This document shows positions 29 through 56,632 of a stretch of DNA of 64,000 nt, piece after piece. Made by a program: the position numbers and the translations under genes. Each line of letters opens with the position of its first letter. Position 1 is the stretch's first letter. The notes beneath the pieces are model-generated. The model was not told the origin of the DNA and made no database searches. It saw nothing but the letters and a program-made list of their open reading frames with translations. The DNA is from Candidatus Binatia bacterium (GTDB lineage: Bacteria > Desulfobacterota > Binatia > HRBIN30): assembly GCA_038245295.1 (NCBI GenBank), contig JBBRSP010000006.1, positions 174,021-238,020 on the forward strand, written 5' to 3'.

Positions 29-940
29 TCATCGGGATGGTGAGGGCAATAGCCGCGCATCGGGCGGACCTTTGCCCCTTGTGCTGCGGACGTTTTCTCC
101 CGGCGTCCCTTCCTTACTGTAGGGAAGTCCGGCGAGCTCTCGTAAGGAATGCGGCACCGCGCTCGCGGCCGCTCGCCAGATCGCTCCCGTGGGGTCGCTC
201 GTCACATCGTGCAGCGAGGCAAACCACACCGGGAGGGACGCGCGCACGTGAGCCACTCGCGCCCGGTAGCGTTCAAGCCAGACGGGATCGTGTCCAACGA
301 CGAGGACGATTTCCGGTGTGTCGCTCGGCTGCCAGTGGCTCGCCGTATAGCCGTATACCTTCTTCAAGAACCGCTGCGGTGTTCTCGTCTGATGTTCGAC
401 CTCGAGAGCGAACGTTGCGTGGACCTGATCGTCCCAGCCTACATCGAAGTGCGCGTCGGGAACGATTCGTCGAAGGCGCGGCGTGCGCAGTTCCCAGTCA
501 GACCGCCACGACAGGATCGCTCCGCCGGTTGCATCGAGCCCCCGCGCCAGGTGCACGCGGACCGTGTTGATCGCGAGGAGGTGCTCCAGGTTTCGGTCGA
601 GGCCCCGTGGGACGCGGTAGCGCTCATCGGCCGCTCCTTCATTTGCGAGAACCAGTCGTCCCGAGTTCGCTAGACTATAGACGTTGTCTCCCGAGAGGCT
701 GCGTACCCACACGCGCACAAGGCCTGCGTTGAGCAATCGGCGCAGGCACTTGTTCGTCGCGGATCGCGTGCCGAAGCACATGGTCTGGATCTGCGTCGTT
801 GTGAGGAAGCGCATCTTCGCCAGTGCTTCGAGGAGCCACTGATCACGATCGGTCAGGCGCACACGCGCCGCGTTTGCTCGCTTGAGTGTGCGGCGAGTGC
901 GGCAGCACTTTGACAGCAAAGCAATCGGTGTCTCGATCAT
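29..940 (-). CDS. Replication-relaxation family protein (wHTH N-terminus). ATG at 940 overlaps the stop of the upstream Zn-ribbon gene (ATGA). A longer alternative start lies at 985.
   Basis: N-terminal motif LTDRDQWLLEALAKMRFLTTTQIQTMCF...NKCLRRLLNAGLV is typical of the Replic_Relax family of actinobacterial plasmids/ICEs. It is the last gene of a coupled minus-strand operon. Confidence 0.6.
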   Translation of the reverse strand: MIETPIALLSKCCRTRRTLKRANAARVRLTDRDQWLLEALAKMRFLTTTQIQTMCFGTRSATNKCLRRLLNAGLVRVWVRSLSGDNVYSLANSGRLVLANEGAADERYRVPRGLDRNLEHLLAINTVRVHLARGLDATGGAILSWRSDWELRTPRLRRIVPDAHFDVGWDDQVHATFALEVEHQTRTPQRFLKKVYGYTASHWQPSDTPEIVLVVGHDPVWLERYRARVAHVRASLPVWFASLHDVTSDPTGAIWRAAASAVPHSLRELAGLPYSKEGTPGENVRSTRGKGPPDARLLPSPSR

Positions 941-1260
941 ACGCTCTGCACCGGGTTCTTGAGACCAACCCCGCATACCTGGCACGGAATGAAGGGCGGA
1001 GCGGCGCCGCAGACGGCGCAGCGCGTGAACGCAAAGCCATCAAACACGTATCGACAACGCCCGCATTCGAAACGACCGACCAGACTAACTGGCGAACCGC
1101 ATCCGAAGCAGGGCAACGCGTCCCGACGGGTCAGCACAACCGCGCCAGCGAGTTGCTTGGTCCAGCGGTAAAGACGACTCGCCACGCCGAATGGTAGCAG
1201 CACCGCCCAAAGGGCGAGCCGGATGGTCAGCAAGAGCGAGCGGAACATCAGATCTTCCAT
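937..1260 (-). CDS. Small membrane-anchored double zinc-ribbon protein (107 aa)
   Basis: Internal start MEDLMF at 1260-1258 overlaps the ATPase stop (TGATG). One TM helix is followed by four CxxC pairs (CFGCG, CGRC, CAVCG, CQVCG). Confidence 0.45.
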   Translation of the reverse strand: MEDLMFRSLLLTIRLALWAVLLPFGVASRLYRWTKQLAGAVVLTRRDALPCFGCGSPVSLVGRFECGRCRYVFDGFAFTRCAVCGAAPPFIPCQVCGVGLKNPVQSV

Positions 1261-2867
1261 CAGCCGAGTCGTGGCCTTCCCCGCCGAGTTGGCGGAACGG
1301 GCTCTTGAGACACGACGACGATCGGCGGCCGAACAAGTTCCCGGAGGCGAGCTTTCCGCGCGGTGAGTTGGCGACGCAACACTTCTCTCGGGACGGCGAA
1401 ACCGCCGTGGTCGATCCCCTGTTCCCTGATGAACGCGTCGAGCCGGTTCGCGGAGATCCCGATCCGCTCGTGTGGGGGCACGAAGTCCGCGACTCGAACT
1501 TGGACTGCACGGTATGGTTTGCGACGATCGTACCAGTAGCACATGCGGTTCGGCAGCCGCTGTAGTTTCTCCATCAAGTGACGGCGCATTTCGCTGCGAC
1601 TGGGAACCTCCCCTGAGCGGCGCAGGGCGCTTCCCACCATTTCCGGGTCGACGTCGGGAAGGAAGTCACCGAAGAATTCGGCGTTCCGCCCCGACGTCCG
1701 AAACAGCGCCATGAGGTCGCAGTTCGCAAGCATCGTCTCCCGGAGCGCCGGCGGCACTTGCGAGAAGTTGTGCATGACGAGTGCCAGGTGCACACCGAAG
1801 CTCCGAAGCGTCGTGAGTGCCGTCGCGAAGCGGTCGGCCAGCGCCGGGGCGGCGAGCAGGTGGAAGAATTCATCGAGGACGACGAGGTACGGACGATGTT
1901 TGCCTTCCGAGGCATAGGCCGCCTGGAACAACAGCTGAAGCAGCAGGCTGCCGAGCAAAGCCACCACCTCTTCTGGAATGCCGGCACCTTTGCCGAGAAA
2001 TACGAGCAAAGGATCACCTCGTGAGATGACGTCGCTCAGATCGATGAGATCGTCCGCCCCGAGCATGAGGCGGACGTTCTCGGCGAGCAGCAATGCCTGC
2101 AGCCGAGCGGTGAGCGCATGCTTCGACGTCTCCGGGAGAATCGCGTACGTCCGAAAGAAGAACTCCTTCAGGCGTTGGTCCGCCGACCGCTCGACGAGCA
2201 CACCGCGCAGCACGTCATCTTCCAGGACGGCAGGCGCCTCGACGAGCGACAGACCGGCCTCGGTGAGGAGCATCACCAAGTGACGGAGGATGTTCTCCAT
2301 ATGAATACTAAGCGAGGCCTCAAAGAGACGCGCGAATGCCAGGGTGACGTCGTAGGCCTGCACTTCGGCCGTCGATCCGGATGGTACCCGGCAGATGTTC
2401 AAAGGCGGCAGCGCATCGCTGAATGGGTTGATGATCGCGAGTCGCTCAATGAAGGTGGTGCGATCCCCTGGGTTCATCTCCCACGCGATTGCGGCAGCTG
2501 ACTGCAACACCATGTGAAAGAATCCCGACTTGCAATCGACGACGCCGATCGGTCGTCGTACCGAGAGTGCCCAGTCGACGCACGACGTAACGAAGGTCGT
2601 CTTGCCAGTACCGGTCCCACCCTGAACGAGCCAGTGCGCGGCGAAATCATCCGGGCTGAGTCGTAGACGCACCATTTTACCGGCCGCGTCGCCCGCCGTG
2701 CCAATCTGCAGCGCAAGCTCTTTATCCTGACTAGTTGTAACAAAAGCGTCGTAGTCACCGACGGCTTCGCGAAACACCCGGGCGCTCGCCCTTGCCACCT
2801 CGGCTCGTGCCTTCTGGCGATCACGCGCATGGCCGCGCGCGACTTGAATCCAACGCTCAAGTGCCAT
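1260..2867 (-). CDS. FtsK/HerA/TraD (VirD4)-superfamily P-loop ATPase, type IV coupling-protein-like
   Basis: Walker A GGTGTGKTT, Walker B LVVLDEFFH and a VVDCKSGF motif resembling T4CP DPKG. Paralogous to the 37685-38950 ORF. Confidence 0.6.
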   Translation of the reverse strand: MALERWIQVARGHARDRQKARAEVARASARVFREAVGDYDAFVTTSQDKELALQIGTAGDAAGKMVRLRLSPDDFAAHWLVQGGTGTGKTTFVTSCVDWALSVRRPIGVVDCKSGFFHMVLQSAAAIAWEMNPGDRTTFIERLAIINPFSDALPPLNICRVPSGSTAEVQAYDVTLAFARLFEASLSIHMENILRHLVMLLTEAGLSLVEAPAVLEDDVLRGVLVERSADQRLKEFFFRTYAILPETSKHALTARLQALLLAENVRLMLGADDLIDLSDVISRGDPLLVFLGKGAGIPEEVVALLGSLLLQLLFQAAYASEGKHRPYLVVLDEFFHLLAAPALADRFATALTTLRSFGVHLALVMHNFSQVPPALRETMLANCDLMALFRTSGRNAEFFGDFLPDVDPEMVGSALRRSGEVPSRSEMRRHLMEKLQRLPNRMCYWYDRRKPYRAVQVRVADFVPPHERIGISANRLDAFIREQGIDHGGFAVPREVLRRQLTARKARLRELVRPPIVVVSQEPVPPTRRGRPRLG

Positions 2868-2875
2868 CTCGATCC

Positions 2876-3166
2876 TCAGTGGTCGCGCTGCTCATGTCGC
2901 CGTTCGGCAATCCCCGCCGGCCGACGCACCGGTGGAATGCGGAGCGGCTGTTCATCCTCGATCTCCACATGCCCATGCCGCCGTATGGTCATCCCCGCAC
3001 CCAGGCATACCGCTACGATTCCCACGAGCAAGAGCCACGGCAGCACGACACTGATGACTAGAACGATTGCCTGGAAGGCGCAGCACATGAGCGGCTGCAC
3101 GATGAGCAGCGCCACCACAAGCTCGACCAGCGTGTCCATCGATGCCCGGCCGCGCTCATCGTTCAT
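2876..3166 (-). CDS. Small hydrophobic membrane protein (96 aa)
   Basis: Two predicted TM segments. Its start ATG overlaps the JAB-E1 stop (ATGA). Confidence 0.45.
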   Translation of the reverse strand: MNDERGRASMDTLVELVVALLIVQPLMCCAFQAIVLVISVVLPWLLLVGIVAVCLGAGMTIRRHGHVEIEDEQPLRIPPVRRPAGIAERRHEQRDH

Positions 3167-4605
3167 CCGGAGGCGCCTTCCGCGTGGCCGACATCATCCA
3201 GACCAGGGATGACCGGTGGTAACTCACTCCTGCTCATGCGGTTCGGGCGCCAGGTCGGAACAAGATCACCCAGACCCAGCCGTCCTTCTGCGCTGCAGTG
3301 CAAACACCCCTTTGTTTCCGGCACGGTGATTGAGAAGATCTCCCCTTCGAGTTCGCGATAGACGAGGTACGGCCGCGGGTTCCGGTAGGGGGCGACGAGG
3401 TTGTGCAGCTCTGCCACAGCAAGCGAGGCCACCACACCGTTTAGGTGGTACACCGCGGGCGCAGCTACTCCGGTCAAGTATCCGCGTTGCGTCAGAAGCG
3501 CCCGCTCCTCTGGTCGTGCCAGATCTTGTGCTGCACGCGTCGCGTCAAGCACACCTGCGCAGAGCAGGCACCACGCTCCCAGGGGCGGCACCACGACTTC
3601 GCCGCTGATATCGTCAAAGCGTCCGTCGTCGCCCACGCTGAGGTTGACCCCAGCGTGCAGAATCGGAATCAGATATTGCGCGGCCAAGGCGTTGAGCACG
3701 AGACGGGAAGCATCGTTGTCCGTGGCAGCGATCAAGACATCGCAACCACTGAGCGCCCTGAGCGAGCGCTCCGTGAACACGGTACAACGCAGCGCCTTGA
3801 TTTCCGCATCGTCGTCGATGCTGCGAATGTTTCGCGCCGCCACATCGACCTTGGCGATTTCTTCGGTCGCATCGGAGAGCGTGGTCGCGAGCAGTCGATT
3901 GAGGTTGCTGACTTCGACAATGTCCGGATCGACCAGCACCCAATCCCGCACCCCGAGTCGGGTGAGCTCCTCAACAATGACACTGCCAATGCCACCCACG
4001 CCGACAATTCCCACGCGCAGCGCTCGCATCCGCGCCTGAAACCCTCTCCCAAAAGCGCCGATCTGCCGATCGAACCGAGCGGCGTCGACCGCTGACAAGC
4101 CCGCATCCCCATCGAACATCAGCATCGCTCCATCGAAGGACGGCGACGGAATTCGAACCGGCCTCGCTTCGTCATCGCGCACCTCCCAAATGCGTGTGGC
4201 TGTGCTCGATGGATTGACGACGACCGAACCGTAAACCGTTTCAGGCAGGCGCTCCGCGAGGTAGGCAGCCATTACGAGTTCGTTTTGATCATCGATACAC
4301 GAGAAATCGACGTGCGGGCCGTCACCGGGGTGCGAGTGGAAGTCGACCTGCGACAAACCCTCTTGGGCGGCCAGTTGCAGGACGTGCTGCTGCACCTCGG
4401 GTCGCAGGGTCAGACCGCCCGCCGATTGATGACTGAATGCCTCAGGCGGCATGAGTACGAGGTGACGTCCCAGAAGCCTCAGTTGTGTGCCTGTGCGGTG
4501 CAGGCCGCAGAGTACGATAGCCATTTGCTCACGCTCTCGATCGTGGAGCAGGTGCGTGCGGAGTTCTCCTCCCATGGTTGGTGGAAGGACGATTCGATAG
4601 TTCAT
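3163..4605 (-). CDS. JAB/MPN(JAMM) deubiquitinase-like domain fused to E1-like ThiF/MoeB adenylyltransferase domain
   Basis: The N-terminus has a JAMM-like motif EG...FHSHPGDGPHVDFSCIDD. The central region has the ThiF Rossmann motif GIVGVGGIGS...VLVDPDIVEVSNLNRL. C-terminal CxxC pairs (CLLCAG, CLHCSAEG) are present. Start MNYRIV at 4605 is 11 nt after the E2 stop. Confidence 0.75.
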   Translation of the reverse strand: MNYRIVLPPTMGGELRTHLLHDREREQMAIVLCGLHRTGTQLRLLGRHLVLMPPEAFSHQSAGGLTLRPEVQQHVLQLAAQEGLSQVDFHSHPGDGPHVDFSCIDDQNELVMAAYLAERLPETVYGSVVVNPSSTATRIWEVRDDEARPVRIPSPSFDGAMLMFDGDAGLSAVDAARFDRQIGAFGRGFQARMRALRVGIVGVGGIGSVIVEELTRLGVRDWVLVDPDIVEVSNLNRLLATTLSDATEEIAKVDVAARNIRSIDDDAEIKALRCTVFTERSLRALSGCDVLIAATDNDASRLVLNALAAQYLIPILHAGVNLSVGDDGRFDDISGEVVVPPLGAWCLLCAGVLDATRAAQDLARPEERALLTQRGYLTGVAAPAVYHLNGVVASLAVAELHNLVAPYRNPRPYLVYRELEGEIFSITVPETKGCLHCSAEGRLGLGDLVPTWRPNRMSRSELPPVIPGLDDVGHAEGASG

Positions 4606-4616
4606 GACGGATGTCC

Positions 4617-5168
4617 TCAATTGTCGTTGGTCAACACGTCGCGCACGAGCGACAAGAAGGTCCACAGATTGTCGGAATCGCGGAAGTCGGCCGATGGCTG
4701 CCAACCGCCATCGTCAGGAGCCTTCGGCCAGACGCAATACCAGTGCCAACCTGCTGCCAGAAGATCGGGCGCACCATGAAATGCGGAGCTGGTGAGATGT
4801 GGATCACCCCCGCCGTCGGCCAGAGGAAATTTCCTGTCGAGATAGAAACCGAGTGGCGGTGAGATCGGGTAGGTCTGTGGGAACACGACTAAGAGCTGCG
4901 CCCAGCGGTGCTGCCAGCGTTCCGGGAGCGCGAACTGTTGGATGCGAAGCCAATCGCCGTTCGCTTCGTCGAAGTCGACGCCACCGCGATCGCTGAAACG
5001 CGGCGCGATCATCAGGACCTCGTTCTGAATGCGCGTTGTGCGATCGTCGAACCCCGAGGGGCCAACGGCAGCCCGGCGCGCTGGCGCTCTGTCGGGCGTC
5101 ACGTCGATCGCCGTATCATGGCCGTCTGGTATGAACAGTGCCTCAAGGACTCGGACGAATGTGCTCAT
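4617..5168 (-). CDS. E2/UBC-like ubiquitin-conjugating enzyme homolog
   Basis: UBC-like FPQTYPISPPLGFYLD motif (compare eukaryotic FPxxYPFxPPxxxF). A candidate catalytic Cys sits in WHWYCVWP. The gene lies between the Ubl and JAB-E1 genes, and the Ubl stop overlaps its ATG. Confidence 0.55.
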   Translation of the reverse strand: MSTFVRVLEALFIPDGHDTAIDVTPDRAPARRAAVGPSGFDDRTTRIQNEVLMIAPRFSDRGGVDFDEANGDWLRIQQFALPERWQHRWAQLLVVFPQTYPISPPLGFYLDRKFPLADGGGDPHLTSSAFHGAPDLLAAGWHWYCVWPKAPDDGGWQPSADFRDSDNLWTFLSLVRDVLTNDN

Positions 5169-5392
5169 GAAAACCTCCCCCTGGCCTGCCCTTTGACCCG
5201 CGCCGGCGCATCGAGAAATACGTCCCCGTCGTTGATCGGAACTCTGCTGCCCTTCGGGATCATGAAGTTGCCTTCTCGCGTTCGGCGCATGAGATTGCGC
5301 TTGCCGTCGATGTTGCCGATCCGACGGATATCCGCATCGGAGGCTGACTCCGGCAAATTCACCTGACGACCGTTGATGATTGCTGCTGCCAT
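5165..5392 (-). CDS. ThiS/MoaD-like beta-grasp ubiquitin-like protein (75 aa), no C-terminal Gly-Gly
   Basis: MAAAIINGRQVNLPESASDADI...IPKGSRVPINDGDVFLDAP fits the ThiS/MoaD pattern. A GGGAGA RBS lies 7 nt upstream of the ATG. It is the first gene of the coupled operon. Confidence 0.5.
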   Translation of the reverse strand: MAAAIINGRQVNLPESASDADIRRIGNIDGKRNLMRRTREGNFMIPKGSRVPINDGDVFLDAPARVKGQARGRFS

Positions 5393-5788
5393 TTTGTGTT
5401 CTCCCTTTTTGTGTTGTGCTGCTGTTGAAGGACTATCGGTTCCGCCCGCGGCGCTTCGGCGCGCCGCCGAAGAGTTGCTTGGCAACCTCATGGCCCAGCC
5501 CGCCAAGCTGTCGCGTCGCTTCGCCCTTGAAGCCTCGCAGTTGCCACTCGGCCTCGCGGCCAAAGCCGCGGAGCTGCCGACTCGCTTCACGACGGATTTG
5601 GCGAACGAGCCCGCTCCGTCTGTCATCGCCTCGCTTTGCCATTCTTGTCCTCCTCTCTTGTTTTTTGATCGGTCATGGCTCGCGTCGAAGCGCCGTACAG
5701 AACGCCTCACGTGTGACCGGATCCTAGAGCGGATTGAGAAAAGGGGTACGGTAACGACGGGGCTACGGAGAGGGATACTGAGGATAGG

Positions 5789-7921: not shown

Positions 7922-8464
7922 TCACCTCCGCGATGCAGGGTGTCGTATGGGGAGGGAATGGTTGCCGTCAGCTGAATAGTAGTAAGTAAGGGCGAAAGAG
8001 ACGGCATCGAAAATCGCCATCCGTTGGTCCTCGCTCATCCAGAGCTTGCGAATCGGCGGCACCGATACCGCTAAGGCAGGGAGATGTTCCGCAACGGTGC
8101 GGGCCATCCGGTCTTTGTTCGGTCGCTCTTCCCCTTTGAACATCTCGCGGACTTCCCGCGCCGAGACGATGTGAAGGTCAAGGCCAAGGTGGATGACGAG
8201 CCGCGAGATTCCTCGAATCAAGGCACGCGCGCGTCGTCGACGCCGACAGCTTGAGTCCGCGCAATTCTCAACGATGACGATGTCCGGTTGGTACTGCTGA
8301 ATGAGCTGGGTCACCTTCTGGAGTGCCACTCGTCGCGTACCACCACGGCTTCGACTCAGACCCCAATCTACAAGGTCACCCGGGCCTTCAAGGATTGCAT
8401 ACCCAAAACCACGCGAGAACGGATCCACCCCTAAGACCCGGCGCGTCATGCGCTCGCGTCTCAT
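7922..8464 (-). CDS. RuvC/YqgF-like RNase H-fold resolvase-like protein
   Basis: VLGVDPFSRGFGYAILEG...PDIVIVEN resembles the RuvC N-terminal motif (LGIDPG...G.A). Its start overlaps the upstream HTH gene stop. Confidence 0.45.
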   Translation of the reverse strand: MRRERMTRRVLGVDPFSRGFGYAILEGPGDLVDWGLSRSRGGTRRVALQKVTQLIQQYQPDIVIVENCADSSCRRRRRARALIRGISRLVIHLGLDLHIVSAREVREMFKGEERPNKDRMARTVAEHLPALAVSVPPIRKLWMSEDQRMAIFDAVSFALTYYYSADGNHSLPIRHPASRR

Positions 8465-8826
8465 ACCGATGCATCGTTATCGGTCTGATGCGCTCCTGCT
8501 GCGTTGGCGATCGCCGAAAGCGTCTCCAGTTTGCGCTGGTGTAGCGGACCGCCATGGCTGGTGGACAGACGTTGCACGAGCGCGTGCACACGTTGAATGA
8601 CGTCGCTCGTGGCCCGCTCATGTGCGCCCGCAAAGAGCCGCTCCAGCGGTAGACGAAAAATGATGGCGCACGCAAACATCGTGGCGACGTTTGGGTGGCG
8701 TACGAATCGCTCGTAGCGCGATACTTTGCTGCCATGTTGGCAGCCGAGCAGGAAGGAAACCTCAGCCTGAGACAGGCCTGCCTCCCTCCGCGCTGCCCGA
8801 ATGTAGTTCGGGAGCTTCTGAGGCAT
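8461..8826 (-). CDS. XRE-family HTH transcriptional regulator
   Basis: AARREAGLSQAEVSFLLGCQHGSKVSRYERFVRHPNVATMFA is an HTH_XRE pattern. Confidence 0.6.
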   Translation of the reverse strand: MPQKLPNYIRAARREAGLSQAEVSFLLGCQHGSKVSRYERFVRHPNVATMFACAIIFRLPLERLFAGAHERATSDVIQRVHALVQRLSTSHGGPLHQRKLETLSAIANAAGAHQTDNDASV

Positions 8827-8999: not shown

Positions 9000-9941
9000 T
9001 TAGTTGAGCGCCGCAGTCAGGAGCGATCCGCCGAAGCGTTCCATCTCGATGCGTCGCAGCGGTGCCAATGTTTGGGCCGCTCCGGTAAAGGCGTTGATGA
9101 TCCCGAACCGATTCGCCTCGGGGTCGCCAATGTAGCGTGCCATGATTTCATCGGTGAGCTTCTGGCTCATCTTGCGCTCTTCGGCGATATTCCGGATGAC
9201 GTCGAACGGATCAGCGATGGGCTCCTCCCTGGTCTTCAGGAATGCGTCGAGCACCTGGCTTGCTACCACGAAGCCGTCGCCAATCGCCTCGGCCATGCGG
9301 CGGGTGAGTTCGTTTGCCGTGAAGTGGATGTGCGCGTGCCGAAAGGCTTTCTCCTCGGCCACCACCAGGTCGTTCGTGCATGCTTTGCGGAACACGAACG
9401 GCTCGACCGACACGCTTCCCATGCCGACCTCGGAATTGCCAATCATGATGCCAGCCTTCAGGCCACTGGTGGGCTCGACCAACTCCTCGGAGACGATCTT
9501 TAAGAAGCAGTGGGTCTCTTCGAGCACAAACGACTTGATCCGAAGGGTGTCGCTTCTGAGCAGCTCTTCCACCGTCTCGGCGATCTGCCGGTTGTCGAAA
9601 GCGACGTACTCGCCGGAGAGGAAGGCGCGCACGTGAGCGGCTTTGCCGCGCAAGAGAAAAGCTCGTTCACTCATTCGTGAGAAGTCGAAGTTCGCTACCT
9701 TGGCTCTCATGTCGTTCGGCAGCCGCCGGTAGTACGCCACCGGGATACTGAGGCGTTCGCACATTTGACTCGTTGCGAGATCCGAGAGCGTCAAAGATTC
9801 CGGCGCAGGTCCTCCATTCTTCGCCAAGAGATCGCCGCGCTCACCGATCCAGAGCTGCGGGGTGGGCATCTTGCGATCCCATTTTCCGACGTCGTCAGCG
9901 GAGATCCGCGTGGCAACGTCATTCCAGGTTACTCGGTCCAT
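9000..9941 (-). CDS. DUF932-like phage/plasmid-associated protein
   Basis: Start MDRVTWNDV at 9941, with a perfect AAGGAGG RBS 7 nt upstream. The overall pattern (LTLSDLATSQMCERLSIPVAYY...) resembles DUF932 proteins of ICEs. Confidence 0.45.
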   Translation of the reverse strand: MDRVTWNDVATRISADDVGKWDRKMPTPQLWIGERGDLLAKNGGPAPESLTLSDLATSQMCERLSIPVAYYRRLPNDMRAKVANFDFSRMSERAFLLRGKAAHVRAFLSGEYVAFDNRQIAETVEELLRSDTLRIKSFVLEETHCFLKIVSEELVEPTSGLKAGIMIGNSEVGMGSVSVEPFVFRKACTNDLVVAEEKAFRHAHIHFTANELTRRMAEAIGDGFVVASQVLDAFLKTREEPIADPFDVIRNIAEERKMSQKLTDEIMARYIGDPEANRFGIINAFTGAAQTLAPLRRIEMERFGGSLLTAALN

Positions 9942-10263
9942 TGTTCTTTCCTCCTTTATTTGAACGATCTGGAGGGAAGCGTACGGCGAACGATGGATGC
10001 GTTGAAGAATGGTCCTTTTGCCGCTCGGGATCATGCCGCTTCTCTTGGCAAGTGAGGAGGTTGAGACACGAAGAGACAGGGAATTCTCGGCTGCTCACTT
10101 GTTGTCCTGTTGAACGGACATCCGCGTCTGAACCGTCCGCCTGGGCAGACAAGCCGTGCTGCGCCCTTGTCCATCAAACAATAACCGCCACCGAACTACA
10201 CAGGCGTAATTCTTGCTTCTAACGGAAGTCAAATTCTGGCTCGAATTAAAGGGGGCAAATTAA

Positions 10264-10746
10264 ATGTGGGCAAGACTGGCAGCGGTTATCTACTTCTTCT
10301 TGTCGCAAATCGGCGGGGGCGGGAGCCTACCTGCACAGAGCGGCATCGTCCTGAGCTGTGCGGGCGCCACGTGCACCCCGACATCTACGCGCACACGAAC
10401 GCCAACACGGACCCGGACACCGACCCCAACATGCACGGAAACACCGACGCCGATCGCAGAACCGGTGGTACACGCTGACATCGCGTGCTGGAAAACAGGC
10501 GTTCAGTGCTACGCCTGCAACCGGGGCCCGGACGACGCAACGATTCACGGTTTCGTTACGCCCGCGACAATGCCGGCGAGCCCCGACTTCTCGATCTCGT
10601 GTGGCAGTACGCTTTTCGTTTGGGCGGCGGATGGCGCCTCGGATCCGGCATCTGTCACCTGCCTCGTTTCAGTGGTGGGGAATGGACCGAAGAACATCAG
10701 TTGCGGAACGGTGCCGGTATCCTCCTGCGACTGTCTTGCGCCGTGA
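10264..10746 (+). CDS. Small secreted protein with a signal peptide and PT/RT-rich linker
   Basis: N-terminal hydrophobic segment, a TPTSTRTRTPTRTRTPTPTCTETPTP low-complexity tract and multiple Cys. Confidence 0.45.
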   Translation: MWARLAAVIYFFLSQIGGGGSLPAQSGIVLSCAGATCTPTSTRTRTPTRTRTPTPTCTETPTPIAEPVVHADIACWKTGVQCYACNRGPDDATIHGFVTPATMPASPDFSISCGSTLFVWAADGASDPASVTCLVSVVGNGPKNISCGTVPVSSCDCLAP

Positions 10747-11070: not shown

Positions 11071-11100
11071 AAGTCACCCAAAGTCACCTAACGTCACCTG
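11071..11100. repeat. Three GTCACC motifs phased at 10 bp. Right arm of the inverted iteron pair. Overlaps the last codons of the helicase-like gene.
   Basis: AAGTCACCCAAAGTCACCTAACGTCACCTG. A GGTGGCCACC palindrome at about 11043 lies between the arms. Confidence 0.7.
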
Positions 11101-12438
11101 GTCGTCAGTTGGTGCTCGCTGCTCCGCGCCTTCGGCCAGGCCGTACTTCTCGCGCAGGCGCTGGAGCTTTGGGAAGTCTTCGAGGGCGATGACGTAGCTT
11201 CCTTGAACTCGTTGCGGCTTGAGACCAAGGCGCTTTCGTAGAATGCCGCCGATCCACTTGTTCGTCACCTTGCGCTCGTATTCGTCACCAAAGCGTTCCG
11301 TAAACTCGGTCGTGATCTCTTTGACAGAAAGACGCGACTCGGCGCTGAGAAGCAACAGTTCATTGATGACGTCGACCACTTGCGCCTCGGTGCTCATCCC
11401 TCGCTCGGAAACGGTATCGTGCTGATAGCGGTGCGCGAGCTCCGTGATTTCCAGACGAACGGCCGCATCGTCGATGATGCTGAGCAAAGGCACGAAGACC
11501 TGATTGAGACGCGGTTCGAGGCTCCGGTCGACGAACGCTTCGTTCGGACGGCATCGGGGTAAAGTCCGGAAACGGAACAGCAGGAGCTTGTTCCGCAGCG
11601 CACGTGCTTCATTCTCAAATGCTTCGGGAAGGCTGATCGGAATGTCCTCGCGCAACGGACGTTGCCCCATGTCTTCGGTCAGGCAGCGACTCTCAAGAGC
11701 GTTGTCTTCAAAGAAGCCGCGGGTAGCGATAATCTTCGGCCCAAACACCGCATAGGCGCGCGGGTTGAATTCGCCCTTGCCGTTCGCCTCGCTCCTGAGC
11801 ACGGGGAAGCCCCGGCCGTTCCCGTTGTTGAGGATCTTGACGACTTCAGCCTTCGCGTCGGTCTGGCGCCAATCGCTCTCGTCGACGACGAGAGTGCCGC
11901 GAAAGGTGTCGATCAGCCGAAAGATTGGCGAGACGGTTGAGGCGCCACTGGCGAAGATTGGTTTGTAGCAGAGCGATCCGACGGTCAGGAGAAACCGGCT
12001 TTTGCCGCTGCCGGCGTCACCGCGGACGCGAAGGTATGGCAGCTCGTTGAACCGATCGTAGACCCACGTGAAGAGGATGTAGTAGCTCGCGATCTGTTCA
12101 TAGATCGGGCTCAGATCAACGTAGCGATGCAGAAACGCCTGGAGTTCGTGGATCAAGTCAGACTCTGCACCGTACTCCTCGGGCGCAGACGGAAACATCA
12201 CGACGCGATGTTTCACGAGGTTGTTGCTGGCGGCGTAGGGCACGAGAGTCTCGGAGGCACTGAGTTCAACGCGGGGCTGTTCGTGCCACGTGCCGTCGTT
12301 CCACACGGCGAAGGACGTCGAGACCTTCTCAGGGTCGTAGACCATTTCCACGACTCGCCCATCGGCAAGCACCGCAGATACGGCCGGGACGCCGCGCGAG
12401 GTGGTCGGCTCTTGTTTGTCAAGCTGCTTCTCGTCCAT
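11074..12438 (-). CDS. P-loop NTPase, putative replicative helicase-like protein of the element
   Basis: Walker A RGDAGSGKSRFL and Walker B-like TLVVDESDW. Lies immediately downstream of the TOPRIM/zf-CHC2 primase gene and overlaps it. Confidence 0.5.
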   Translation of the reverse strand: MDEKQLDKQEPTTSRGVPAVSAVLADGRVVEMVYDPEKVSTSFAVWNDGTWHEQPRVELSASETLVPYAASNNLVKHRVVMFPSAPEEYGAESDLIHELQAFLHRYVDLSPIYEQIASYYILFTWVYDRFNELPYLRVRGDAGSGKSRFLLTVGSLCYKPIFASGASTVSPIFRLIDTFRGTLVVDESDWRQTDAKAEVVKILNNGNGRGFPVLRSEANGKGEFNPRAYAVFGPKIIATRGFFEDNALESRCLTEDMGQRPLREDIPISLPEAFENEARALRNKLLLFRFRTLPRCRPNEAFVDRSLEPRLNQVFVPLLSIIDDAAVRLEITELAHRYQHDTVSERGMSTEAQVVDVINELLLLSAESRLSVKEITTEFTERFGDEYERKVTNKWIGGILRKRLGLKPQRVQGSYVIALEDFPKLQRLREKYGLAEGAEQRAPTDDQVTLGDFG

Positions 12439-13498
12439 CGGTTTGAGAGTGAAGGTTTTCCAAAAACTCAAGCGCTTTCAGGAACGGTAACCGCTCGACG
12501 GCGATCACGAACGTGATCACGTCACCGTACCGGCCGCAGCCGTAGCAGCGGAACCGACCGGCCTCGGGGTACACCATGAGCGAGGGGTAGTGGTCTTCGT
12601 GGAAGGGGCACCGGCCACGCAGACTCGCGCCGGACGGGCGCAGTTGGATGTAGCGCTCGATCAGATCGCCAATGGGAACCGCCGCCTTTACGTCAGCAAC
12701 GCGACGACTCACTTCGTTGAAGGGACGCGAAAGACCAGACGACGGTATCACCGGTAGGGTCACGGGAAGCACGGGTACCGGCGTCGCTCGCTCAAGGAGC
12801 CCGAGAAAGTCTTCGCGCGTGTGTTGAAGTCGCACGAAGAAGTCGGTGATGTCACCGGCCGGACCCACCTCGTCGGGTAACTGGACGATTTTTGCATGTG
12901 GCAGGAATTGGCCGACGCGCAGCGCTCCAGCCCGGCCGGCGCCGTCGAGATCAAAGCAGAGGTAGATCTCCGGAATTGGTGCGAGATCATCAACCCACTC
13001 GGTACGGAGGGTACCCGCGCCACCGGTCGACGTCACGGCCGCGAAGCCGTGCGACTCCAAGACCAGTCGATCGAACTCGCCTTCGCAAATGATGAGGCGG
13101 CACGGTTTCGCGAGCACACGCTCCCAACCGTAGAGTTCTACTGACCCGCCGCGCGACGTCAGCATTTTTGGATCGTCGTTGCTGCCTTCCGGATCCCTCG
13201 CCAGTTTGAAGCAAACCACTTCGTCCAAGCGGTTGCGGATCGGAATCGTAATGCGCCGACCGTTCCAACCGAGCTGATGGAGTGTGATCACCTCGTCCGC
13301 GATACCGCGCGCCACAAGATACGTGCGAATGCGGTCGGGCAGCGCTTCGTGGTACCGAATGGCTTGGGCGCGAAGGTCGTCATGCATGATTCGCACGGTA
13401 CGACAGTCTACTACGTGGCCGAAGGCGGCGCGGTATGGCGACAACGGCAAGTCGGCCAGTCTTCGGTGCATTGAGGACGACGCGTAGGATGGACGCAT
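12419..13498 (-). CDS. Primase-like protein with a TOPRIM domain followed by a C-terminal CHC2 zinc finger
   Basis: TOPRIM motifs LIICEGEFD and CFDLDGAGR are mid-protein. The zf-CHC2 motif CPFHEDHYPSLMVYPEAGRFRCYGCGRYGDVITF is at the C-terminus. Confidence 0.6.
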   Translation of the reverse strand: MRPSYASSSMHRRLADLPLSPYRAAFGHVVDCRTVRIMHDDLRAQAIRYHEALPDRIRTYLVARGIADEVITLHQLGWNGRRITIPIRNRLDEVVCFKLARDPEGSNDDPKMLTSRGGSVELYGWERVLAKPCRLIICEGEFDRLVLESHGFAAVTSTGGAGTLRTEWVDDLAPIPEIYLCFDLDGAGRAGALRVGQFLPHAKIVQLPDEVGPAGDITDFFVRLQHTREDFLGLLERATPVPVLPVTLPVIPSSGLSRPFNEVSRRVADVKAAVPIGDLIERYIQLRPSGASLRGRCPFHEDHYPSLMVYPEAGRFRCYGCGRYGDVITFVIAVERLPFLKALEFLENLHSQTDGREAA

Positions 13499-13668: not shown

Positions 13669-13896
13669 ATGGCGGTTGAACGACGCGAACTGACTTCGCT
13701 CCGTCATCTCCTCACCCTAGGAGAGGTGGCGGAGTTTCTGCGCATCTCAAAAACCAGCGTCTATCGGCTCGTCGATCGGCGCGAACTTTCCTGCTGCCGT
13801 GTCGGTCGCAGCCTCAGGTTCACGATCCACGATGTAGATACCTACTTGCGTAGTCAACGCATCGGACCAACTGCCGCTGATCAAGACAACCTATGA
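13669..13896 (+). CDS. xis: Excisionase-family HTH DNA-binding protein
   Basis: LLTLGEVAEFLRISKTSVYRLVDRRELSCCRVGRSLRF matches the excisionase/AlpA-type HTH. Overlaps the integrase start by 4 nt. Confidence 0.6.
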   Translation: MAVERRELTSLRHLLTLGEVAEFLRISKTSVYRLVDRRELSCCRVGRSLRFTIHDVDTYLRSQRIGPTAADQDNL

Positions 13897-15080
13897 GCGC
13901 ACGGAAAATAGGACACTCCTGGTGGGTGGATTTCCGACACGCTCACCAGAGAATTAGAAAACGAAGTCCAGACAACAGTCGCGCTGGCGCTGCGGTATTC
14001 GAGGCGACGCTGCGCGGTCGCTTGGCTCGCGGAGAACCGCTGTTTCCAGCGGTGCACCGACCCCAGCCAAAGCCGCGCTTCGAAGTGTTCGCCTGGCACT
14101 GGTACGACGTCTATGTGAAGACCAACAACAAGCCGTCCGAGCAGCGGACGAAGCGAATAGTCCTCCGAAGGCACCTCGTACCGTGTTTTGGGAAGTCCGC
14201 TCTCGACGCGATCACGGCGCTCCACATCGAGCAATTCAAGGCGTCGCAACTTAAGTCGGGCCTTGCCCCAAAGACTGTCAACAACTCCCTAGCGATCCTT
14301 GGAAAATGCCTTCGAACCGCAGAAGAATGGGGCGAGGTTGTTCGCATGCCCAAGATCAAGCCGTTGCAGGTGCCGCCGCAGAAGTTCGACTTCCTGTCGG
14401 TCGAAGAAGCGAATCGGCTCATCCGCGCAGGGAACGATCCTCAGTGGCGAGCGATGGTCGTAGTCGCACTTCGAACCGGTCTCCGGCTCGGCGAGCTACT
14501 CGCGCTCGATTGGACAGATATCGATCTGGAAGCCTCGAGACTCACGGTACGGCGGTCGGTCTTCGGGAACCAGTTCGTTTCGCCGAAGAGCAACCGCATC
14601 CGGCACATTCCGCTCACAGATCAGACGCTACGGGTGCTCTGCGCGATCAAACAACCGGCCGGTCTTGTTTTCAAGCGCCGCGGTCCCGGACCTCTGAATC
14701 GTAAGACCCCAGCAAGAGTGATTTCGCTCCTTTGCACCGCAGCGGGCATTCGCCAAATCGGATGGCACGTCCTCCGACATACATTCGCCAGTCACCTGGC
14801 GATGGGCGGCGTTAGCATGAAGGCAATTCAGGAACTGCTTGGCCATTCAGACATTCGAACGACGATGCGCTACGCCCATCTGACTCCATCGATACTGCAG
14901 GACGCAGTGCGCGTTCTCGAGTCCGAGCCGACGCCAGCGGACACGCTTGTTGGGCAACCGGCGGGCAACGCTTTTGTAGCCGCCGTGGAGGACAAACAAA
15001 AACACCCCAGTATACGGGGCGTTTCTGCGGAATTTGTTGGCTCGGGAGGTGGGATTCGAAACGCCGGGCACGACGTTTGA
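13893..15080 (+). CDS. int: Tyrosine site-specific integrase
   Basis: C-terminal catalytic motifs HVLRHTFASHLAMGGVSMKAIQELLGHSDIRTTMRYAHL (R...HxxR...Y). Core-binding N-terminal domain present. Confidence 0.85.
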   Translation: MSARKIGHSWWVDFRHAHQRIRKRSPDNSRAGAAVFEATLRGRLARGEPLFPAVHRPQPKPRFEVFAWHWYDVYVKTNNKPSEQRTKRIVLRRHLVPCFGKSALDAITALHIEQFKASQLKSGLAPKTVNNSLAILGKCLRTAEEWGEVVRMPKIKPLQVPPQKFDFLSVEEANRLIRAGNDPQWRAMVVVALRTGLRLGELLALDWTDIDLEASRLTVRRSVFGNQFVSPKSNRIRHIPLTDQTLRVLCAIKQPAGLVFKRRGPGPLNRKTPARVISLLCTAAGIRQIGWHVLRHTFASHLAMGGVSMKAIQELLGHSDIRTTMRYAHLTPSILQDAVRVLESEPTPADTLVGQPAGNAFVAAVEDKQKHPSIRGVSAEFVGSGGGIRNAGHDV

Positions 15081-51968: not shown

Positions 51969-52102
51969 AAGTTTTGGAAAGCGGAGACGATTCTGAGTCT
52001 GCGATCGCCGATGGCACTGCGGTGCACGTCGCCGGGGCCGATGCAGGCGTAGATGAGACGGAGTTGAGGTGGGTGGAGTGTGATGTTGCCGGGCGAAGCG
52101 GA

Positions 52103-52846
52103 TTACTCCTGCGGCGGGCGCAGGGATGTGCCGGTGATGCGCACGGTGGTGCAGTGGTGACGCAGGCGACTGAGTAGGGCGTCGACCATGTTTTTCTGCC
52201 CGAGGAATTCGTACCACTGCTCGTAGTCGAGGTTGGTGGTGATGATCGTTGACTTACGCCGGTAGCGCTCCTCCATGAGCTTGAAGAAAATGTTGGACTG
52301 CTCGGGGCGCAGATTGAGATACCCAAGCTCGTCAATGAGTAGGACGTCGATACGCAGCAGGCGATCGACGAGCTTGCGCGAGGAGCGATCGGCAAGGCTG
52401 GCGTACATCTCGTCGAATAGATCCTGGGCTTTGACGAAGAGCCCGCGGTAGCCGTTCTCCAGCGCTTTGATCAGAATGCCGGTGGCGAGGCCCGTTTTAC
52501 CGACGGCGGTTTCTCCGACAAACACGACGTTGGCGGCGCGGCTGACGAAGTCGAGCTCGGCAAGCTGGCGGATCTGCGTGCGGTTGACCCCAGGCTGCTG
52601 GTCGAAGGGGAAGGTCTCGATGGTCCAGCGCTCGGGAAGCCGAGCTTGGTCGATGCGGTACTTCATCGACTGCTCGCGCCGGTAGAGGTACTCCTCGCGA
52701 AACAGCCGGGCCAGCACCTCGCGCACCGTCGAGCCCTGCTTCTCGGCCCGCTCCAACTCGCGCTCGATGATCTTGCCGATCTGCTTGAGCTTGAGGGAAG
52801 CGCACAGTTGGTCGAGGTCGTCGTCAGATCTGTTTGCCGTCGTCAT
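52103..52846 (-). CDS. istB: IS21-family IstB ATP-binding helper protein
   Basis: Walker A VFVGETAVGKTGLA, LLIDELGY and the C-terminal pattern. Start MTTANRS at 52846. An upstream istA is represented only by a C-terminal remnant (about 52850-53250). Confidence 0.75.
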   Translation of the reverse strand: MTTANRSDDDLDQLCASLKLKQIGKIIERELERAEKQGSTVREVLARLFREEYLYRREQSMKYRIDQARLPERWTIETFPFDQQPGVNRTQIRQLAELDFVSRAANVVFVGETAVGKTGLATGILIKALENGYRGLFVKAQDLFDEMYASLADRSSRKLVDRLLRIDVLLIDELGYLNLRPEQSNIFFKLMEERYRRKSTIITTNLDYEQWYEFLGQKNMVDALLSRLRHHCTTVRITGTSLRPPQE

Positions 52847-53250
52847 CGTCGTTTCCTGTGTTGGCTGGGGTGAGGCGGAAGTAGTCGCCGGCGATCTGCT
52901 TGAGCAGCAGCTTCTCCAGCCGCACGAGATCGGTGAGCCCGTAGCCGCAACAGGAAAAGGGGATGACCCCCATTTCGCAGTCTCAACGGCAGAGCCGAAC
53001 GGCGAGTTCAAGCGATATATCTTGCGCGTACCACCAGAGATGAAGACGGCAAAAGAAGCCGTCGCATGGACGTTCGGCCTTACGGCGGACGAGTATTGTC
53101 CGCGGGTTGAGTCGTGATCGACGTCGGGGACGAGAGAGCATTGGCGGGTAGGCCGGGCAATGCATGGGGGCACCGGCCGGGACGTTGTGAGGTTCCTCAA
53201 CTCTCGAAGACTTACGAAAGTTCCAGCAACTTCCCCATTCGCCAACACCG
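52103..53250 (-). mobile_element. IS21-family remnant (intact istB, truncated istA)
   Basis: The istB ORF is preceded by only a short istA-derived reading frame. The insertion abuts the truncated cyclase gene. Confidence 0.5.
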
Positions 53251-53288
53251 AGCCTTAGAGCGATGAAAGCCGCCCCGAAAACATCGAT

Positions 53289-55619
53289 CTAAGGCCAAAA
53301 ACGAGGCCGGTTTTCGATGATTGGTTTATGATTTCCGCCGAGTACAGTGGTCCGACCCGGGAAAAGCCCCCCCTGCGACCAGTGACGGCGCGACGCGGCC
53401 AGGTCGCTAGCCCGGACCCAGCGTGCGGCGCGCACATGCCAGGTGGCGGCGCGCAGGGCGTCGCCCGCTTCCGTCCAGTGATGCGCCAACAGGCCGGCGT
53501 GCTCGTCGAGACGCTCGGCGTGGGCGGCCGCGATCGCCTCGGCGACCGACGCGTGACGCGCCCGCCGCGCCGAGACGAGCTGAGCGCCCAGGGCCACCTC
53601 GTGCGTCAGCGGATGCTTGAAGGCGTACTCCGCCACCGGATAGAGGGCGCGCTCGCGCACCAGCTCGGTGGCGAGCAGCGCCGTCAGCGCCGTCTCGAGA
53701 TCGTCGCCGCGGATCTCGATCACTGCCTCGAGCAGCGGCCGCAGGAACTCCTTGCCGATGACGGCCGCGGTGTAGAGCAGCAACTTCTCGCGCGCGCCGA
53801 GGCGGTCGATGCGCGCCGCCAGCAGCGATTGCACTGTCGCCGGCACCTGCAGCGCGTCGATCGCCGTCGCCAGCTCGTAGGCGCCGCGCACACCGACGAG
53901 GCGGCCGGTGTCGAGCAGCGAGAGGACGATCTCCTCGGCGAAGAATGGGTTGCCGCCGGAGCGCGCCCCGACGAGAGCCGGAAGCCCCGCCACCGACGGG
54001 CTCGAACCGACCCAGTCGCGCACCAGGTCCGCCAGCGCCTCGGCGCCGAGCGGCGCCATCGGCAGTTGCAGCACCCACGACTTACGCGTCCAGTCCGCCT
54101 GATACTCGGGGCGGAAGTTCACCAGCAGCAGCGTGCGCGTGGCGCTCACCGCCTCGACGATCTGCGCCAGGAAGAGGTCGCTGCCGGGATCGATCCAGTG
54201 CAGGTCGTCGACCAGCAACACGATCGGCTCGGCCTCGGTGCGCAATTGAATGAGGCGGCGCAGGAAGGTGAACAGGCGGCGCTGGCGCACCGCGGGCTCG
54301 AGCTGGAGAGGCGGTGCCTTCGGATCGCCGACGCCGAGGAAGTCGAGCACCAAGGCGCGGTCGTCGGCGAAGGCGTCGTCGAGCAGCGCCAGCTCGCCGG
54401 CGATCTTCGGCCGCGCCTCGCGCGGCCCGTCCTGATCGGTGATGCCGAAGAGATTGCGCAGCAGCTCGAGCAGCGGCAGATACGGGATCGTCTTGCCGTG
54501 CGCCGGGCAGTGGGCCTCGTAGACGACGAGTCCGCGGGCGCGGCAGCTCTCGACGAACTCGGCGCAGAGGCGGCTCTTGCCGACCCCTGCCTCGCCGATG
54601 ACGGCGGCGACGCGTCCGGTGCCCTCGAGCGAGCGCGCCAGCGCCAACCCCAGCGCCTCCATCTCGCTGCGGCGTCCTACGAAGCGCGACAGCCCGCGCG
54701 CCCGCGAGGTATCGAGGCGGGTGCGGTGGCTGCCCACTCCTTCCAACACGAACACCCCCACCGGCTGGCGCGATCCCTTCACCTGCAGCGGCCCGAGCGA
54801 GCGGGCGGCAAAGTAACCGTCGACGTGCTTCTGCGTGTGCTGCGACAGCGCGATACCGTCCGCCGGCGCGAGCTGCTCCATGCGCTGCGCCAGGCCGACC
54901 GTGTGCCCCTGCGCCGTGTAGTCCATGCGCAGATCGTCGCCGATCTTGCCGACGATCACCTCGCCTGAGTTGAGGCCGAGGCGAAAGGAGAAGTTGACGC
55001 CCGGGTCGAGGCGCAGCTCGTCGGCGTACGCCCGCAGGCGATCGCGCAGATGCAGCGCCGCGTAGCAGGCGCGCTGGGCGTGGTCCTCGTGCGCGATCGG
55101 CGCGCCGAAGAGAGCCATGATGCCGTCGCCGGTATACTGGTTCACCGTGCCCTCGAAGCGATGCACGCCTTCGGTGAGAATCTGGAAGAAGCGGTCGAGG
55201 ATCGTGTGCCACTCCTCCGGATCGAGCTGCTCGGCCAACTCCATCGAGCCCTTGACGTCGGCGAACAGGACGGTGACCTGCTTGCGTTCGCCTTCGAGGG
55301 CCGACTTCGATTGCAGGATTTTATCGGCGAGGTGTTTTGGGGTGTAGGCGCGTGGCGAGAGGTTGTTGGTTGTTCGTAAGGAAGGACTGACCGGCGCGCC
55401 CGCCATCGTGGCCGATGCCACGGACGACGAGGGATCACCGTTGAGCTCGGCAATCGCCTTGAGCAATTTCTTGCGGTGGCCCATCGAGACGCCGAGCTTC
55501 TCGAGGTCCTGCTCCGACAGGCTCGGCAGGATATCCAGATCGATGTCGTCGGCTTCGAATCGATCGCCGTATTGATCGAGCCCCAGCTTCTCCAGCCACT
55601 GGCGGATTGGGCCGCTCAT
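53289..55619 (-). pseudogene. SAM domain, class III adenylate/guanylate cyclase, STAND/AAA ATPase (TPR) protein, C-terminally truncated
   Basis: N-terminal SAM (LEKLGLDQYGDRFEADDIDLDILPSLSEQDLEKLGV). CHD cyclase (VTVLFADVKGS...TGDGIMALFGAP). P-loop AAVIGEAGVGKSRL. The reading frame terminates in IS-derived sequence next to the IS21 remnant. Confidence 0.55.
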
Positions 55620-55899
55620 GTGGCCAGCTCGCTCAGCAGCGTCTTGGCGTCCTTCAGATCGCGCCTGTCGAAGCCTTCCGCACTCCGGAGGCCTCCGGCG
55701 GACGTGTCGGTGAGCCGGACGTAGAGCACGGCGAGGAGAGCGCGAATACGGGTCTCCAGTTCATGATTCGAGCTTTCGCACATCGTCCGATACTTACCCT
55801 CTATGTGGCTCACAGCCAAATCGGGCGTTTGTTCGGGCTATCCGCCGTGAAGGCCGCGAGCTATTCCCTGCGAGCCGTTGGACTGCAGGACACGCCGCG

Positions 55900-56301
55900 T
55901 CATCGCGTTCCCCCAGATCCACTCGCTTTAGCACGGGCGATCATGAACGCGACCGCGTCGTTCATGCCAACGGGTTCGAGCTTCATCTCCGGGTGGTGAC
56001 GCGCGAAGATACGAAACACTTCGTCGCAGAAGCCCTGGCCGACGACATCTACGCCGCTGAAATCCAGCACCGCTTGCTCAAACTCGCTCAGCCGCTGGAC
56101 AACCCAGCGCGCCTCCGAGCGCGAGATCAGTGCGGATCCCAGGCTGCTCAGTCGCACCGTCGTGCACGTGCGGGTGAATCTGAGCTTGGCCGGGTCGGTG
56201 AAGGGGCGGAAGACTTCCTCAATCGGACCGGGCTGGCGATAGTTTTTCCACCATTGTTTGGATGCGGCCTCGGCAATGAGGACAACAACGGCGTCTTCCA
56301 T
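55900..56301 (-). CDS. STAS-like (DUF4325-type) domain protein
   Basis: Start MEDAVVVL. LDFSGVDVVGQGFCDEVFRIF pattern. Confidence 0.45.
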   Translation of the reverse strand: MEDAVVVLIAEAASKQWWKNYRQPGPIEEVFRPFTDPAKLRFTRTCTTVRLSSLGSALISRSEARWVVQRLSEFEQAVLDFSGVDVVGQGFCDEVFRIFARHHPEMKLEPVGMNDAVAFMIARAKASGSGGTR

Positions 56302-56632
56302 CTTATGATAACCGACAGGGATGGTTAGCGGCGACCGGTCTTGCGTCCGGTGACGGTGATCAACATGAGCCCAGGGCTGAGGAGCCGATGGAACGGCAAC
56401 CGCAGGATCGCCGCCACGACGCCGTTCAGGCGGGTCGATAACTCCGGGCAAAGCCGGTCTGGCCACATTTACCGCCAATAACTCGCAGATCATCCTCCGG
56501 TGCATGTATCAATTCGCCGACAAGTCCCCTACTCAGGCGACAATGATGGCCATGGGGACGATGCCGGCGACCACATCCGTCCGGCGTTCGCCGCGCTATC
56601 CGGCCGCGAACGAGCCTGGTACGGTCGCCGCC

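Follow-up and report, generated by a model that had tools for sequence, protein, structure and literature searches.

Among bacterial operons that encode a ubiquitin-like protein (Ubl) together with its own processing and conjugating enzymes, the class most closely related to the locus described here is class 6e of Iyer, Burroughs and Aravind (2006), in which a polyUbl and an E2-like domain without Cys are encoded together with a JAB-E1 fusion and a protein that binds metal (PMC1779556). The JAB domain in such operons was predicted to process and to remove the Ubl (PMC1779556). Ye, Gong, Chambers and Corbett (2024) renamed class 6e as Bub, with a Type I, formerly "6E.1", that consists of BubAB, BubCD and BubE (PMC11601596). 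Edman sequencing revealed that the JAB domain of BubCD cuts the Citrobacter BubAB precursor right after a conserved Gly, G229, and the structure of BubCD with BubA has been described (PMC11601596). Bub chemistry involves a Ser of the E2 besides a Tyr in the crossover loop of the E1, and the DUF6527 serine protease BubE is carried by all 544 Bub operons (PMC11601596). A comparable maturation step is present in the Bil system (BilABCD; Chambers et al. 2023/2024; Hor et al. 2024), in which E. aridi BilC cuts BilA between G97 and A98, removing one residue and exposing G97 (Chambers et al., bioRxiv 10.1101/2023.09.26.559546).

The DNA analyzed here (the window) is a stretch of 64 kb in which the genes for a Ubl, an E2-like protein and a JAB-E1 fusion head a tight co-directional cluster on the minus strand, with genes that overlap or nearly abut. 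The features of this cluster, in the order of transcription, are as follows.

5433..5642, minus strand: Arg/Gly-rich protein of 69 aa, directly upstream of the Ubl gene and conserved in the related loci L001, L004 and L005
5165..5392, minus strand: Ubl precursor gene, 75 aa including the tail (ORF with ribosome-binding site, homologues, beta-grasp model)
5189..5392, minus strand: predicted mature Ubl, residues 1-68 (invariant G68, end point of 24/74 relatives, drop in pLDDT)
5168..5188, minus strand: tail QARGRFS, seven codons, predicted propeptide (junction comparison; translated Ubl-E2 spacer)
4617..5168, minus strand: E2-like UBC-fold protein, 183 aa, with an invariant Cys145 (Pfam, alignment, Foldseek, hhalign)
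3163..4605, minus strand: fusion of a JAB/JAMM peptidase with an E1 adenylation domain, 480 aa, starting at MNYRIV (PDB search, Pfam, conservation)
2876..3166, minus strand: membrane protein, 96 aa, conserved in related loci, with a start that overlaps the stop of JAB-E1
1260..2867, minus strand: P-loop ATPase, 535 aa, distantly VirD4/TraD/HerA-like, a conserved downstream partner
937..1260, minus strand: membrane-anchored protein, 107 aa, containing four CxxC pairs but lacking His
29..985, minus strand: Replic_Relax (MobC-like) protein, last gene of the co-directional cluster

The Ubl gene extends from an ATG, with the ribosome-binding site AAGGGAGAA located 8 nt upstream, to a TGA at 5165-5167, and encodes a 75-aa precursor (MAAAIINGRQVNLPESASDADIRRIGNIDGKRNLMRRTREGNFMIPKGSRVPINDGDVFLDAPARVKGQARGRFS) whose C-terminus reads ...DAPARVKGQARGRFS-TGA. 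The ATG is common to all of the relatives, which share the N-terminal sequence M-A-x-A-x-I-N-G-R. Because all of the relatives begin at this same sequence, a 181-aa GTG-start ORF in the mechanical ORF list (5165..5710, GTG at 5710) was rejected as an artefact, the homologues starting at its internal ATG. A search of 5.8 billion proteins identified 22 close relatives of the Ubl, and 64 more matches came from searching 1.84 billion cluster representatives with a profile, two repetitive proteins among them being left out. These 22 close and 64 more distant relatives confirm that 5165..5392 is a real gene. An AlphaFold2 model, calculated with the 22 homologues in the input, has a mean pLDDT of 85; residues 1-62 form a beta-beta-alpha-beta-beta-beta-beta arrangement with pLDDT >90, the confidence drops after residue 62-67, and residues 68-75 have pLDDT <50, so that the tail is predicted to be disordered. 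In a Foldseek comparison of the model with the PDB, the top matches are structures of BubA ("multi-ubiquitin") from Citrobacter and E. coli (9d59 and 9cd2, with E 5.5e-3 and TMq 0.66-0.74; 9ea8_B, with TM 0.72), followed by ThiS, MoaD and ubiquitin. The identity of the Ubl to the Bub structures is 8-17%. The Ubl has no match at E<=0.1 in Pfam, NCBIfam or PADLOC, including the Multiubiquitin, ThiS and ubiquitin families, and searching the family profile against PDB sequences returned noise only; the link between the Ubl and BubA is therefore a link of fold. The Ubl thus has the composition of a beta-grasp modifier, in which a flexible C-terminal segment ending in a conserved Gly comes after the beta-grasp fold, as revealed by AlphaFold2, Foldseek and the invariance of G68.

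The precursor encoded at 5165..5392 on the minus strand ends in DAPARVKG followed by QARGRFS, with the codon of Gly68 at 5189-5191. The family motif D-A-P-x-R-x-K-G, which contains a single Gly, is essentially invariant in the 22 close homologues. G68 itself is invariant in 22/22, and it is the C-terminal residue of nine of them; the others carry tails of 1-12 residues that are conserved neither in length nor in sequence. When 83 sequences of the family were aligned to the 68-position Ubl profile, a Gly was found at the last profile position (the G68 column) in 74. Among these 74, 24 stop exactly at the conserved Gly, 42 continue into unconserved tails of 1-68 aa (33 with 1-12 aa and nine with 13-68 aa) and eight are fused after the Gly to another protein, namely seven to an E2 (for example, P0102, P0107, P0121 and P0125) and one to a JAB-E1. 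At the sequence level, an invariant Gly with a varied continuation is the signature of a cleavage site, in parallel with polyubiquitin and ubiquitin-fusion precursors, and it points to G68 as the mature C-terminus of the Ubl. The earlier note had described a 75-aa beta-grasp protein with seven residues past a near-terminal Gly, and the ORF, the AlphaFold2 model and the relatives bear this out; an alignment of homologues, the kind of check that it proposed for locating the end of the fold, gave the pattern above, with G68 conserved and the residues beyond it free to vary. It erred in calling this residue the only near-terminal Gly, as the tail contains a second one, G72 (QAR-G-RFS), although G68 alone is conserved in the relatives. 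The Gly-Gly that it found missing is indeed absent from the Ubl; the premise behind that remark does not apply, because the family motif has a single K-G and the absence is thus unremarkable.

Two proteins from the representative search show further arrangements of the domain. P0144 (574 aa) is a Ubl fused to its own JAB-E1 (…FEYG/AGVRRE…HSHP…), which implies self-processing in cis. P0093 (147 aa) is a head-to-tail di-Ubl joined at the conserved Gly (…TKG/AKRVRLNG…) with a tail of nine residues, and is a bacterial analogue of a polyubiquitin precursor.

Regarding the origin of the tail, the DNA of the Ubl-E2 junction was compared in 20 distinct loci. In the subclade of the window, which contains L001, L021 and L022, the E2 gene always begins with its ATG 20 nt past the Gly codon; the loci differ solely in where the first in-frame stop falls. 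The junction of L001, the closest comparable locus, reads GGC/TAG CCG AGC GGA GGA GAG CC ATG and gives no tail; that of L021 reads GGT/CAG GGG AGG AGG GCC TAG and gives a tail of 5 aa; that of the window reads GGG/CAG GCC AGG GGG AGG TTT TCA TGA and gives a tail of 7 aa, with the TGA overlapping the ATG of E2. L001 thus has TAG in place of the CAG of the window, a single-base difference between an untailed and a tailed Ubl. In more distant Chloroflexota-type loci, spacers of 37-122 nt separate the two genes, and the Ubl stop comes either immediately after the Gly or 1-2 codons later. Because the E2 ATG keeps a constant offset and just the stop position differs among the junctions, the tail is, by this comparison, the translated 20-nt intergenic spacer between Ubl and E2. 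The Shine-Dalgarno sequence of E2, GGGGGAGG (5174-5181), is located inside the codons of the Ubl tail, and the translation of this purine-rich element is the reason why the tail is rich in Arg and Gly.

The E2 gene starts with an ATG (5166-5168) that overlaps the Ubl stop as ATGA, a 4-nt overlap. Its product matches Pfam Prok-E2_E above the cut-off (7.8e-7), and a profile built from 24 homologues detects eukaryotic UBC enzymes at E 0.0035 and Citrobacter BubB at E 0.013. The AlphaFold2 model has a pLDDT of 80, and its best Foldseek match in the PDB is BubB (9eae_C, E 1e-4), followed by dozens of eukaryotic E2s. The alignment of the 24 homologues revealed an invariant G-W-x-W-Y-C145 together with D122 and H124, and no invariant Ser. 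In an hhalign comparison with human UBE2D2, C145 falls on the catalytic C85 and H130-G-A-P falls on the HPN motif, an alignment of low probability in which the motifs agree. A UBC fold with a Cys after an HPN-like loop, as indicated by Pfam, the profile, Foldseek and this low-probability alignment, places the protein in the UBC/E2 superfamily.

The JAB-E1 protein starts at MNYRIV (480 aa), and a TTG start that would give 513 aa was rejected because the homologues and the NCBI record and cluster begin at MNYRIV. Pfam identifies ThiF (6e-35) and Prok-JAB domains in it. A phmmer search of the PDB gave Citrobacter BubCD (9ea4_A) as the best match, at E 8.1e-39, with residues 36-442 aligned to 7-407 over about 400 residues. 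The JAMM residues E26, H90, H92, S102 and D105 are all kept, and the residue of the crossover loop is Tyr376; E28/H91/H93/D104/Y370 of BubCD align with E26/H90/H92/D105/Y376 (the chain numbering is offset by two), Y370 being matched by an RGY motif. In 113 JAB-E1 homologues, E26, H90, H92, D105 and Y376 are conserved in at least 98%, with Y376 present in 99%. The sole invariant Cys residues among these 113 sequences are two CxxC pairs, corresponding to a zinc site of the ThiF/MoeB/UBA5 type, and the crossover loop has no conserved Cys. The scores of the E1 domain on the ThiF and MoeB families are far below the curated cut-offs.

Type I Bub and the window operon therefore have several features in common. 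Both encode an N-terminal JAB/JAMM domain fused to a homodimer-type E1, with intact JAMM residues and an invariant Tyr in the crossover loop, where a catalytic Cys is absent. BubA and BubB are the closest solved structures to the Ubl and E2 models, the Ubl precursor extends past the conserved Gly in both systems, some relatives of the window Ubl are Ubl-E2 fusions like BubAB, and both systems are found on mobile elements. In contrast, BubAB is a fusion protein, whereas the Ubl and E2 of the window are separate genes with a 4-nt overlap, and the fused form occurs in 7/83 family members. BubB contains a Ser/His/Asp set, whereas the window E2 has the invariant Cys145 with D122 and H124, and the Ser with His/Asp is lacking across its 24 homologues even though BubB is still the closest fold. 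No match to DUF6527/PF20137 (BubE) was detected in the 19 ORFs of the window at 1-15 kb, and the genes called in L001, L002, L004 and L005 do not include one either. The Cys-rich 107-aa protein was considered as an analogue of BubE and rejected because it has neither a His nor a Pfam match. Moreover, BubCD lacks the two CxxC zinc motifs that the window E1 keeps, the window Ubl has a single beta-grasp domain, and the window operon continues into a TM protein, a VirD4-like ATPase, a Zn-ribbon protein and Replic_Relax. Because three defining features differ (separate Ubl and E2, a Cys E2 and a missing BubE), the window operon is a variant related to Type I Bub and not a member of it. In the Bub papers, all reported E2s have Ser, and the pairing of a Cys E2 with a crossover-Tyr E1 is not described there.

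The Bil system is similar to the window in that a JAB peptidase acts on a C-terminal extension of the Ubl to expose a Gly, as proposed below for the window, and in having a separate E2 with a catalytic Cys. However, the large E1 of Bil has an IAD-AAD-CYS architecture that includes a catalytic Cys domain, and the Bil JAB peptidase is a protein of its own, whereas the window has one 480-aa JAB-E1 fusion without a Cys domain. The Ubls of Bil mostly have two domains, and no sequence similarity was detected between Bil and window proteins. In eukaryotic precursors (polyubiquitin, SUMO and NEDD8), residues or entire proteins follow the activating Gly and are trimmed by the deconjugating peptidase of the pathway itself (DUBs or ULPs), a logic that is proposed for the window as well, and a head-to-tail di-Ubl exists in the window family (P0093). 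The eukaryotic enzyme is a Cys protease, whereas a JAMM metalloprotease fused to the E1 is present in the window, where the tail is a translated intergenic spacer, functionless in itself, and the motif is K-G instead of G-G. In ThiS-ThiF and MoaD-MoeB, too, a beta-grasp protein whose C-terminal Gly is flexible is paired with an E1-like adenylation domain of the homodimer type that contains CxxC zinc motifs, but E2 and JAB partners are absent there and the context is cofactor biosynthesis.

Considering the sequences, conservation pattern, homologies and folds described above, we infer a pathway of precursor cleavage, Tyr-to-Cys relay and target conjugation that is, in our judgment, probably correct. 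The stop after Gly68 would have been lost (CAG for TAG), so that translation runs to the TGA overlapping the E2 start and produces a pro-Ubl with a spacer-derived tail. The N-terminal JAB/JAMM domain of JAB-E1 would cut between G68 and Q69, freeing the carboxylate of Gly68, which the E1 domain would then adenylate. The Ubl would be passed to Cys145 of the E2 as a thioester, either via an oxyester on Tyr376, as in BubCD, or straight from the adenylate, and would finally be moved from Cys145 to a lysine of the target. We propose that the loss of the stop codon was tolerated because the operon already encodes a processing peptidase, and that the presence of such a peptidase in the operon allows the family to vary freely among Gly-terminal forms, short tails and fusions to E2 or JAB-E1. 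The trimming of the Ubl tail is most likely performed by the JAB domain, as in related bacterial systems. The earlier note had suggested maturation by JAB before adenylation, by analogy with pro-ubiquitin, and this idea gains support from comparison and homology because JAB-E1 is homologous to BubCD, whose JAB cleaves after the conserved Gly. A direct transfer from BubCD has its limits: the characterized substrate of BubCD is a Ubl without detectable sequence similarity to that of the window (profile against PDB), and Bub chemistry is not simply transferable since the window E2 has Cys where Bub has Ser.

The single-base difference could be read in other ways. The tail may be the result of a recent stop-codon loss in a single genome that is mildly or fully inactivating, in which case the 75-aa Ubl would stay unprocessed and would not be adenylated, and the Ubl system of the element would be decaying. 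The tail is unconserved and only one base (CAG versus TAG) separates it from a Gly-ending relative, as decay would allow; however, the rest of the operon is intact and its catalytic residues are conserved, and the Ubl body, 76-78% identical to Gly-terminal relatives, lacks disruptive changes. In addition, 50/74 sequences, from many independent lineages, extend past the conserved Gly as tails or fusions, a pattern that would be unexpected if extensions were lethal to function, and we regard inactivation as unlikely. The one-base difference between CAG and TAG is also what a sequencing or assembly error would leave behind if the true gene stopped after G68. Against this, the identical 75-aa protein is found in NCBI and in Logan (two sources that may go back to one set of reads), CAG stands at this position in L021 independently and tails are common among the relatives, so that an error has only a slight probability.

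The remaining alternatives concern the end that is activated and the chemistry that it serves. A different C-terminus would be used if the precursor were cut after G72 (...KGQARG) or activated at Ser75, and the R-G-R around G72 is superficially like the R-x-K-G around G68. Nevertheless, G72 and all residues past G68 are absent or different in all of the relatives, and residues 69-75 are encoded by the ribosome-binding region of E2. Enzymes of the E1 superfamily adenylate a terminal Gly that is held in a narrow channel, and this further argues against G72 or Ser75, the use of which appears highly improbable. The beta-grasp protein could instead be a sulfur carrier of the ThiS/MoaD type or a non-covalent adaptor, making the tail irrelevant to conjugation, and both the scores of the E1 domain on ThiF/MoeB models and the presence of ThiS and MoaD among the Foldseek matches are in line with such a role. 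Those scores, however, are far under the curated cut-offs; the operon encodes a JAB peptidase alongside an E2 of the UBC fold whose Cys is invariant, genes for sulfurtransferases or cofactor biosynthesis are absent nearby and the cluster is located in a mobile element, which makes a sulfur carrier or adaptor very unlikely. Conjugation of a JAB-matured Ubl ending in Gly68 is accordingly the reading that we prefer.

The gene order of the window is also found in the Binatia MAG L001 and in the metagenomic contigs L002, L004 and L005. In these four loci and in the window (29..5642, minus strand), Ubl, E2 and JAB-E1 are always followed, in the same direction, by a small TM protein, a VirD4/HerA-like ATPase of ~540 aa, a TM protein with four CxxC pairs and Replic_Relax, with overlapping stops and starts. 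ATPase and Replic_Relax genes are likewise located near the Ubl system in L008, L009 and L012. Judging by this constant downstream module, the Ubl system may be part of the operon for transfer or maintenance of a mobile element and not of a defence island. Proteins of 289 and 362 aa are also encoded upstream of the Ubl gene. All of the 15 genome matches (15/15) are MAGs, from Binatia, Syntrophorhabdaceae, Anaerolineae/Chloroflexota, Thermoflexus and Armatimonadetes. In the literature, the only match linking Ubl, JAB or ThiF proteins to ICE relaxases was Iyer 2006. The matches of the ATPase (1260..2867) to VirD4/TraD/HerA-type proteins are weak; its best PADLOC match is mad8 of the MADS defence system (E 2e-15), beside weak HerA and VirD4 matches. 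Genes adjoining the conserved module encode a TIR-domain protein in L004 (13660..14610) and a HEPN_AbiV-like protein in L001 (3260..4069), so that these related elements also carry defence-type cargo. The mobile-element backbone in the window consists of the following genes.

7922..8464: RuvC-like protein
8461..8826: HTH_3 repressor-like protein
9000..10034: DUF932 protein
11074..12471: 465-aa protein of no assigned family
12419..13498: CHC2/Toprim primase
13669..13896: HTH_17 excisionase-like protein
13893..15080: tyrosine integrase

Because a primase, DUF932, RuvC-like and HTH_17 proteins and a tyrosine integrase are encoded at 7.9-15.1 kb, the operon is, as judged from these genes, part of an integrative mobile element. 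No tRNA gene that would mark an att site was found in the 64-kb window, and a promoter scan found no promoter and gave terminator-like matches at background level. A 160-aa ORF on the plus strand (10264..10746) has a signal-like N-terminus and a low-complexity region rich in Thr, Pro and Arg (TPTSTRTRTPTRTRTPTPTCTETPTP), without a family match. In the last 12 kb of the window (~52000..64000), the GC content is 0.64-0.67, up from about 0.55-0.60, and this rise may mark the junction of two regions that differ in origin.

The tail by itself adds little, since maturation by JAB was predicted in 2006 and was demonstrated for Bil and Bub in 2023-2024. It does illustrate how cheaply a precursor can originate, as one base turns a stop codon into read-through of the spacer. 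The continuum of Gly-terminal Ubls, short tails and fusions probably explains the origin of BubAB-like Ubl-E2 fusions and of polyubiquitin-like genes. The residual novelty is in the operon family, with its Cys E2 alongside a Tyr E1, the absence of BubE and the linkage to conjugation-type genes. This family is more notable than the tail: it joins the cysteine-free Bub pathway with the canonical thioester E2s, and in MAGs of uncultured Binatia, Chloroflexota and others it is consistently tied to genes of the conjugation type. It is conceivable, though doubtful, that the family represents an undescribed third Bub-like lineage, in which an oxyester-forming Tyr E1 acts with a thioester-forming Cys E2, JAB is the sole peptidase, and Ubl conjugation, encoded in the DNA-transfer operon of the element, controls transfer or establishment. 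If this were true, Ubl conjugation would govern the transfer or establishment of the element itself and would not be phage-defence cargo.
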